Below are positions 15,833 to 16,143 of a stretch of DNA of 64,000 bases, one piece after another (the stretch's first letter is position 1; the number at the start of each line of letters is the position of its first letter). Origin of the DNA: Escherichia coli (GTDB lineage Bacteria; Pseudomonadota; Gammaproteobacteria; Enterobacterales; Enterobacteriaceae); NCBI RefSeq assembly GCF_016026235.1, contig NZ_CP065613.1, one strand, 5' to 3'. The notes beneath the pieces are model-generated. The model had not been told where the DNA came from. It saw only the letters and a program-made list of their open reading frames with translations, and made no database searches. A program made the position numbers and the translations under genes.

Positions 15833-15909
15833 GGCCCTTTAGCTCAGTTGGTCAGAGCGAGCGACTCATAATCGCCAGGTCGCTGGTTCAAGTCCAGCAA
15901 GGGCCACCA
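15833..15909 (+). tRNA. tRNA with CAU anticodon (Met or Ile2, ileZ-like)
   Basis: Manual cloverleaf: acceptor GGCCCTT/AAGGGCC, anticodon loop CTCATAA, 3' CCA. Confidence 0.8.
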
Positions 15910-15910
15910 A

Positions 15911-15987
15911 CCACCACTAGCTCATCCGGATAGAGCATCAACCTTCTAAGTTGACGGTGCGAGGTTCGAGTCCTCGGTGGTGGGCCA
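15911..15987 (+). tRNA. tRNA-Arg (UCU)
   Basis: Acceptor CCACCAC/GTGGTGG, anticodon loop CTTCTAA, T-loop TTCGAGT, 3' CCA. Confidence 0.75.
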
Positions 15988-15989
15988 GC

Positions 15990-16065
15990 GCCGACTTAGC
16001 TCAGCAGGCAGAGCAACTGACTTGTAATCAGTAGGTCACCAGTTCGATTCCGGTAGTCGGCACCA
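15990..16065 (+). tRNA. tRNA-Thr (UGU)
   Basis: Acceptor GCCGACT/AGTCGGC, anticodon loop CTTGTAA, T-loop TTCGATT, 3' CCA. Confidence 0.75.
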
Positions 16066-16068
16066 TAT

Positions 16069-16143
16069 GCGGGCATCGTATAATGGCTATTACCTCAGCC
16101 TTCCAAGCTGATGATGCGGGTTCGATTCCCGCTGCCCGCTCCA
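16069..16143 (+). tRNA. tRNA-Gly (UCC)
   Basis: Acceptor GCGGGCA/TGCCCGC, anticodon loop CTTCCAA, T-loop TTCGATT, 3' CCA. Confidence 0.75.

Follow-up and report, generated by a model that had tools for sequence, protein, structure and literature searches.

Temperate phages may carry transfer RNA (tRNA) genes to supply tRNAs for rare codons or to replace tRNAs that nucleases destroy, and which of the two applies is an old question. It is raised by a 64,000-nucleotide (nt) stretch of Escherichia coli DNA (contig NZ_CP065613.1, assembly GCF_016026235.1), referred to below as the window, in which a lambda-like (lambdoid) prophage carries an island of four tRNA genes at positions 15833-16143. The island holds evidence of both kinds, two divergent rare-codon tRNAs and two copies of host tRNAs. 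With moderate confidence we regard it as a composite late-operon cassette, in which a rare-codon Ile2/Arg pair is combined with copies of host thrU and glyT and the Thr copy plausibly also acts as a back-up against nucleases. The first two genes and the last two, numbered here as slots 1 to 4, probably differ in role. Graded Thr alleles and anticodon swaps in slot 2 among related prophages could show which pressure keeps each slot.

Four tRNA genes and the origins of the cassette

ARAGORN calls exactly four tRNA genes in the window, all on the + strand within the island and none elsewhere. All four match the Rfam tRNA family (RF00005) at 56-70 bits (E <= 1.8e-9), where the gathering score is 29, and so lie well beyond chance. 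Slot 1 is a tRNA-Ile2 with anticodon CAU (15833..15909), slot 2 a tRNA-Arg with anticodon UCU, which reads AGA and AGG (15911..15987), slot 3 a tRNA-Thr with anticodon UGU (15990..16065) and slot 4 a tRNA-Gly with anticodon UCC (16069..16143). The 3' CCA is encoded in each gene and the intergenic spacers are 1, 2 and 3 nt long. These anticodons, ends and positions had been described in a first-pass annotation of the sequence, and ARAGORN, Rfam and a stem-by-stem check all agree with it. The acceptor, D, anticodon and T stems are paired in all four tRNAs, apart from A27xC43 in slot 1, A52xC62 in slot 3 and U13xU22 in slot 4; the last two mismatches are also found in host thrU and glyT, respectively. 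The minimum-free-energy folds of the single tRNAs of slots 1 and 3 are not cloverleaves. Thermodynamic folding of unmodified tRNA is known to yield such structures, and these folds were set aside because the covariance-model scores are decisive.

Aligned with K-12 ileX and ileY, the slot 1 gene gives a mean column identity of 95% (four sequences), and an identical gene is labelled tRNA-Ile by the Prokaryotic Genome Annotation Pipeline (PGAP). Its acceptor stem contains C4-G69 and C5-G68, the TilS discriminators of tRNA-Ile2. From these features we read slot 1 as a tRNA-Ile2 that decodes AUA, not as a Met tRNA; the first-pass annotation had allowed both AUA and AUG, and only the former stands. 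Lysidine modification of the CAU anticodon is expected. Slot 2 has an argN-type scaffold with C1-G72, A20, G73 and a standard CUUCUAA loop as in argU, and the alignment shows it to be clearly divergent from host argU itself.

Slots 1 and 2 are 88.4% identical to features annotated as ileZ and argN in Shiga toxin 2 (Stx2) phages, and by this measure they are homologues of that pair. The expected likeness to the ileZ-argN-argO island of Stx phages (933W type) thus extends to the first half of the cassette. It includes the rationale of rare AUA and AGA/AGG codons and the position of the island after a late antiterminator and leader and before late genes. Unlike in the Stx phages, argO (the third tRNA, a second Arg) is absent and copies of thrU and glyT stand in its place. 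In the window, moreover, the Q-like gene is separated from the leader by an isrK/C4/ant module, and no toxin genes follow.

Slot 4 is identical to K-12 glyT (75/75 positions). Slot 3 differs from K-12 thrU only by U16C and U20C, both in the D loop (74/76 identical), and its anticodon arm is unchanged. In the host both genes belong to the thrU-tyrU-glyT-thrT-tufB operon, where thrU and glyT are 209 nt apart with tyrU between them. The island copies keep this order and orientation in the setting of a prophage late operon. Unlike in the host operon, a 3-nt spacer takes the place of tyrU and the 209-nt interval, and thrT is absent. The island Thr and Gly genes share no flanking DNA with the host operon and their ends are trimmed exactly. 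On this comparison the two halves of the cassette differ in origin. As duplicates of host genes, slots 3 and 4 would add dosage or a variant copy only and no decoding capacity.

The cassette is common. Counting a genome where one place covers at least 80% of the 381-nt island, it is found in 599 of 5426 complete E. coli genomes (11%), annotated as tRNAs by PGAP. The identical island sequence occurs in eight complete E. coli genomes; the exact matches include strains rich in insertion sequences (IS600 and ISSfl3 annotated) with different Q genes, and judging by these annotations the strains may be Shigella-like or EIEC-like. Over 12.5-20.5 kb of the window, none of the complete E. coli genomes compared reaches a coverage above 58%. 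A pattern that picks out only the fused Thr-Gly junction matched at least 120 viral contigs in IMG/VR. Among the matches listed, ARAGORN calls Ile-Lys(UUU)-Thr-Gly at 49 loci, Ile-Arg(UCU)-Thr-Gly at 33 and Thr-Gly only at 19, and a few of the listed loci have a degraded slot 2. The exact slot 2 and slot 3 alleles of the window occur at 28 loci each (for slot 3, 28 of the 118 related viral loci listed), and slot 4 is unchanged in 98 of the 115 loci listed. The four-tRNA composition is widespread, already annotated and not new, and its kind is known from the islands of Stx phages and the Asn-Thr pair of phage 21. From the standpoint of genome annotation the island is ordinary and fits existing categories. 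No paper on this four-tRNA island turned up when the literature was searched for ileZ/argN/argO and for lambdoid Thr/Gly tRNAs.

Homology between the window and its relatives begins at discrete points (15623, 15733, 15816, 15833 and 15985) and stops at discrete points (16144, 16325 and 16658), several of which fall exactly at tRNA ends. These boundaries therefore point to a mosaic cassette that stands behind several Q and leader types, and they suggest that the tRNA genes themselves are recombination joints between phage modules. In many loci the homology breaks off exactly at the opening base of tRNA-Ile2 or of tRNA-Thr, or at the final base of tRNA-Gly.

The distribution bears on whether the Thr and Gly genes have any function. 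They could be relics, taken from the thrU-tyrU-glyT operon by illegitimate recombination and carried along without function in a decaying prophage. This would fit their identity or near-identity with host genes, the insertion element and truncated RecE-like gene of the prophage, and the decay seen in relatives, some of which have truncated anticodon loops in slot 2 or, in slot 4, a 'Val' call and a deletion in the acceptor stem. It does not sit well with the exactly trimmed gene ends, the 1-3-nt spacers and the lack of host flanking DNA. The cassette has also been kept behind several Q and leader types with recombination boundaries at tRNA ends, 11% of complete E. coli genomes have it, and slot 4 is unchanged in most of the loci listed. 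We consider this explanation highly improbable.

Codon supply

The four isoacceptors of the island are the main or only E. coli readers of AUA, AGA, ACA and GGA. The first-pass annotation had proposed that all four tRNAs supplement the host supply for translation of late genes. Codon usage was compared using our own gene calls in the window and two host baselines. The first baseline consisted of the non-prophage genes of the window, including four sit-like genes that were later counted as prophage cargo. In the second the sit-like operon was removed and 42 annotated K-12 genes, some of them highly expressed, were added, giving 20,339 host codons.

Measured against the first baseline, AUA, AGA and AGG are in excess by 2-6x in late and 3-9x in early genes, and there is no excess of ACA (odds ratio 1.02) or GGA (odds ratio 1.16). 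Against the second, late genes are enriched in AGG (9.8x), AGA (4.6x), AUA (2.9x), GGG (2.0x), ACA (1.7x) and GGA (1.7x), which rank 1, 2, 4, 6, 8 and 9 of 61 codons, and AAA plus AAG are not enriched (1.02x). These counts support well a codon-supply role for slots 1 and 2. For slots 3 and 4 the support is modest and changes with the choice of host baseline. The proposal for all four tRNAs thus stands for Ile2 and Arg, whose codons AUA, AGA and AGG are clearly enriched, and is weak for Thr and Gly.

Codon supply could nevertheless be the whole explanation, with all four tRNAs kept only for the use of AUA, AGA/AGG, ACA and GGA in late genes. Every one of the six codons that the four tRNAs read is among the nine most enriched with the larger baseline. 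Tightly packed tRNA clusters with all four of these specificities, Ile(CAU), Arg(UCU), Thr(UGU) and Gly(UCC), occur in T4-type phages, which fits a common translational need. Four observations count against it. The enrichment of ACA and GGA is only slight and is gone when the window's own host genes are the baseline. Early genes are more enriched than late genes, yet their transcription precedes the point at which the tRNAs would appear. A sister haplotype has a UUU anticodon in place of Arg(UCU), though AAA and AAG are not in excess. Changes in slot 3 that are confined to D-loop positions 16 and 20 are left unexplained. We regard codon supply alone as unlikely.

In the composite explanation that we favour, the pool of four minor isoacceptors would rise at a time when many copies of the phage genome are being translated. 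Slots 1 and 2 would provide classic rare-codon supply that matches the excess of AUA, AGA and AGG. Slots 3 and 4 would provide dosage for mildly enriched codons, and slot 3 would most likely also back up tRNA-Thr(UGU) when it is destroyed by P2-OLD or by AriB of the PARIS system.

The Thr tRNA and nucleases that cut tRNA

P2-OLD is the effector of P2-lambda interference and kills mainly by cutting the anticodon arm off host tRNA-Thr(UGU) (PMC12445682). Slot 3 has the anticodon of this target. For cleavage, P2-OLD requires A37 and an anticodon stem with paired CNG motifs, and the Thr tRNAs of phages that resist it have an altered CNG together with a shortened stem (PMC12445682). The tRNA-Thr of the lambdoid phage 21 protects against OLD; over-expression of host ThrU gives little or no protection (PMC12445682). 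The phage 21 tRNA shares the UGU anticodon with slot 3. It is otherwise divergent, its anticodon stem being altered and G27xA43 mismatched, whereas slot 3 is thrU with D-loop changes only.

tRNA-Thr(UGU) is also a prime target of AriB (PMC12409363). AriB cuts at U36AAUC|A41, and its second monomer has been modelled as touching U16-U17 of the D loop (PMC12409363). In the same 2025 paper the change U16C 'significantly impaired' AriB cleavage, as measured in tRNA-Lys, not in tRNA-Thr, and the U16 of E. coli tRNA-Lys and tRNA-Thr was noted to be C in phage T5 (PMC12409363). Slot 3 is changed at this D-loop contact, having C16 as in T5, and in addition C20. T5 and the T4-type phages differ from the prophage in being virulent, with 8-24 tRNAs, and in that their Thr tRNAs have G30C/C40G in the anticodon stem, with or without U43A; slot 3 has not.

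Over the 118 related loci listed, the only frequent departures of slot 3 from thrU are U16C (37), U20C (31) and G42U/U43C (6), counts that represent the spread of a few haplotypes and not independent events. No such concentration of changes is seen in slot 4 over the same loci. Comparison of the window with L004:3191-3266, L130:2495-2570 and six IMG/VR loci (L numbers denote our comparison loci) shows that the alleles of slot 3 form a series: identical to thrU, U16C, U16C/U20C (the window) and further G42U/U43C. With the last step only 3 bp of the anticodon stem remain and the 3' CNG is broken, which is similar to the two-factor change behind resistance to P2-OLD (PMC12445682). The pattern suggests selection by Toprim nucleases, and by analogy with the published systems a counter-defence role for slot 3 is plausible.

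Slot 2 also varies. Across prophages it keeps one argN-like scaffold with differing anticodons (window 15911-15987, L002:3095-3171, L003:3095-3171, L010-L129). The UCU (Arg) form has a normal loop. The UUU form ('Lys', the commonest) and the UGU form ('Thr') have C33 in place of the near-universal U33, together with U73 and A51xC63. Other variants have truncated anticodon loops and are called ???, Phe or Stop by ARAGORN. The UUU allele lacks the AriB site and reads U36AAGUU.

These alleles allow a more specific proposal, which we offer tentatively and consider less likely than not. The Thr tRNA may be a thrU copy hardened against AriB by U16C and U20C, the family may record stepwise counter-defence, and the switch of slot 2 to UUU may have produced a reader of lysine codons free of the AriB site. 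If this is true, a common prophage tRNA island would be a natural allelic series that separates codon supply from nuclease evasion.

Counter-defence might even be the main role of the whole cassette, which would then replace or decoy tRNAs cut by the defences of rival elements (P2 Old, P4-borne PARIS and others), with the codon match secondary. Thr(UGU) is a prime target of both nucleases, protection by the phage 21 tRNA-Thr is a direct published precedent, and the Thr tRNA of the window carries U16C. Sister alleles with G42U/U43C shorten the anticodon stem and break the 3' CNG, sister haplotypes have a UUU-anticodon tRNA without the AriB site, and relatives with Asn plus Thr match the list of AriB targets. 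The glyT gene too has paired CNG motifs and A37. Several facts argue the other way. We know of no nuclease that targets tRNA-Ile2 or tRNA-Gly(UCC). Slot 4 and most slot 3 alleles are identical to the host genes and hence should be cleavable, the slot 3 tRNA of the window retains the cleavage motifs of both nucleases, and over-expressed host-type ThrU does not protect against OLD. The very strong codon enrichment fully explains slots 1 and 2. We judge a mainly defensive cassette to be improbable.

The composite explanation has its own difficulties, most of which concern slot 3. As in thrU, this tRNA keeps the CUG/CAG CNG motifs, the 5-bp anticodon stem and A37, and because of these it should be OLD-sensitive by the published criteria. 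Its AriB site (UAAUCA) is intact. Over-expressed host ThrU is hardly protective against OLD (PMC12445682), and the effect of U16C, known for tRNA-Lys, is here carried over to a tRNA-Thr. The slot 3 allele counts reflect few spreading haplotypes, and no gam-type trigger of OLD was seen in the 64-kilobase (kb) window. The supply argument for slots 3 and 4 depends on the baseline, as ACA and GGA show no enrichment over the window's own host genes. The prophage looks defective, given the IS3-family transposase among its nin-region genes and its truncated RecE-like gene, and selection for lytic growth may be relaxed in it.

The C16/C20 allele could have been the native thrU of another enterobacterial genus. 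This was rejected, as the allele is absent from every enterobacterial representative scanned; among 100,044 species-representative genomes it was found only in three Mycoplasma genomes. There the matches are the genomes' own tRNA genes in DNA of about 29% G+C. In Mycoplasmopsis agassizii and Mycoplasma testudineum (L136-L138) the native tRNA-Thr(UGU) is the same as the prophage allele over its first 41 nt, C16 and C20 among them, and lies in genuine low-G+C clusters of the order Asn-Glu-Val-Thr-Leu. We attribute the match to convergence or deep conservation, not to transfer.

Two relatives show further changes. Escherichia phage SerU-LTIIb (L135:1095-1170) has a second thrU-type scaffold (C16/C20) with anticodon UCU, annotated as tRNA-Arg, with the further changes G24A and A31G, beside a duplicated Gly tRNA. 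It is a further anticodon switch on a tRNA body derived from the host. In RMDEC332 (L004:3270-3340), which has a near-identical cassette, slot 4 has the anticodon UAC ('Val') and a 1-nt deletion in the 3' strand of the acceptor stem, and it is probably a decaying gene.

Genomic setting and the rest of the prophage

The features around the island lie on the + strand in the order Q-like gene, isrK/C4/ant, terminator, tRNAs, structured spacer and holin. The Q-like late antiterminator (DUF1133-type, 14120..14794) matches PHROG 753 'anti-termination protein Q-like' (E = 9e-79); the true start of the gene is probably near 14240, because the match begins at residue 41. The sequence TTGACT, an 18-nt spacer and TATATT (14791..14820) form a promoter-like site by consensus match (10/12 in the scan) between the end of the Q-like gene and isrK. 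What follows is an immunity-type module (14814..15015), comprising the isrK small RNA (sRNA; 14827-14903), the C4 antisense RNA (14931-15015) and the a1/b1 target of C4 (14814-14866), with Rfam matches to RF01394 (75.6 bits), RF01695 (77.6 bits) and RF03163 (52.2 bits). By its composition the module controls the downstream ant gene (14935..15624), whose product matches PHROG 2379 'anti-repressor' over residues 45-229 (E = 6.5e-94).

A leader of 208 nt separates ant from the first tRNA and holds a strong intrinsic terminator hairpin (15715..15745), which is tR'-like with a 13-bp stem and a U-run. Its folding energy is -18.4 kcal/mol (z = -4.55, none of 200 shuffles being as stable), and the first tRNA starts 88 nt after it. 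A weak match to isrK (15670-15743, +, 19.9 bits, E = 0.16) ends at this terminator before the tRNAs.

According to the first-pass annotation the island is flanked by Q and the lysis genes. This is nearly right; the adjoining upstream gene is ant, and the Q-like gene ends at 14794, about 1 kb upstream. In RMDEC332 a homologous DUF1133 gene directly precedes the same leader and tRNAs, and because of this the isrK/C4/ant module looks like an insertion in the present prophage. In phage 21 the annotated order is Q, pR', QBE, terminator, tRNA-Asn, tRNA-Thr and holin. The island occupies the same slot of pR', terminator, tRNAs and holin, differing in that no Asn tRNA is present in the window. From the position of the terminator and the layout of phage 21, we infer that the Q-like antiterminator would let transcription pass the hairpin at 15715-15745 and cover the four tRNAs before reaching the holin gene. 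From this transcript four CCA-ended tRNAs would be freed by host RNase P and 3' exonucleases, and they would then be charged.

A second, weak promoter-like site (TTTGCA, 18-nt spacer, TATTAT; 15794..15823; 9/12 in the scan) ends 10 nt before tRNA-Ile2 and may act as a promoter of the island. A conserved dedicated tRNA promoter is not supported, as no other site near the tRNAs resembles the consensus and the -35 element of this one lies outside the shared region, most relatives being homologous from 15816. A TTGCAT/TTCAAT pair picked by eye at 15633-15661 fell below the criteria of the consensus scan. The island was also considered as the remnant of an integration site, which was rejected: it is internal to the prophage, between ant and holin, and consists of four complete tRNA genes.

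Downstream of the island is a structured spacer of 147 nt with two long hairpins (16144..16290, -48.2 kcal/mol, z = -4.61). It accompanies the cassette in most relatives, and homology continues to about 16658 in most loci. The spacer has no match in Rfam and could be a processing or termination element. The lysis cassette (16436..18347; PHROGs 9876/20, 1085, 7 and 13) consists of a holin (16436-16651), an open reading frame (ORF) of no assigned role (16655-17284), an endolysin (17350-17883) and an Rz-like spanin (17865-18347).

The prophage contains two isrK plus C4 modules, at 3645-3833 (-) and 14814-15015 (+), each upstream of an Ant- or Rha-like regulator, at 3045-3884 (-) and 14935-15624 (+). 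A rearrangement between inverted copies of the module was considered and rejected, there being no inverted repeat of at least 60 nt. A sok antitoxin RNA (hok/sok-type, 118 bits) is found in the nin region at 12467-12641.

The prophage is probably defective, because an IS3-family transposase (8853-10036, -) is inserted among the genes of the nin region and the RecE-like exonuclease (745-2352, -) is truncated, matching only the first 485 of 883 profile positions. Four ORFs of 285, 285, 275 and 304 amino acids at 40495-43944 (-) are components of a metal ABC transporter, with the sizes and order of sitDCBA after the tail fibre genes of phage 21. Because phage 21 carries sitABCD, in its case too after the tail genes, we count this sit-like operon as prophage cargo by analogy and not as core host genes.

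The right host junction (44531-50129) contains uspF, an OmpN/OmpC-type porin gene, the MicC sRNA (46464-46584, 121 bits) and pyruvate:flavodoxin oxidoreductase. In E. coli K-12 the uspF-MicC region adjoins the Rac prophage locus.

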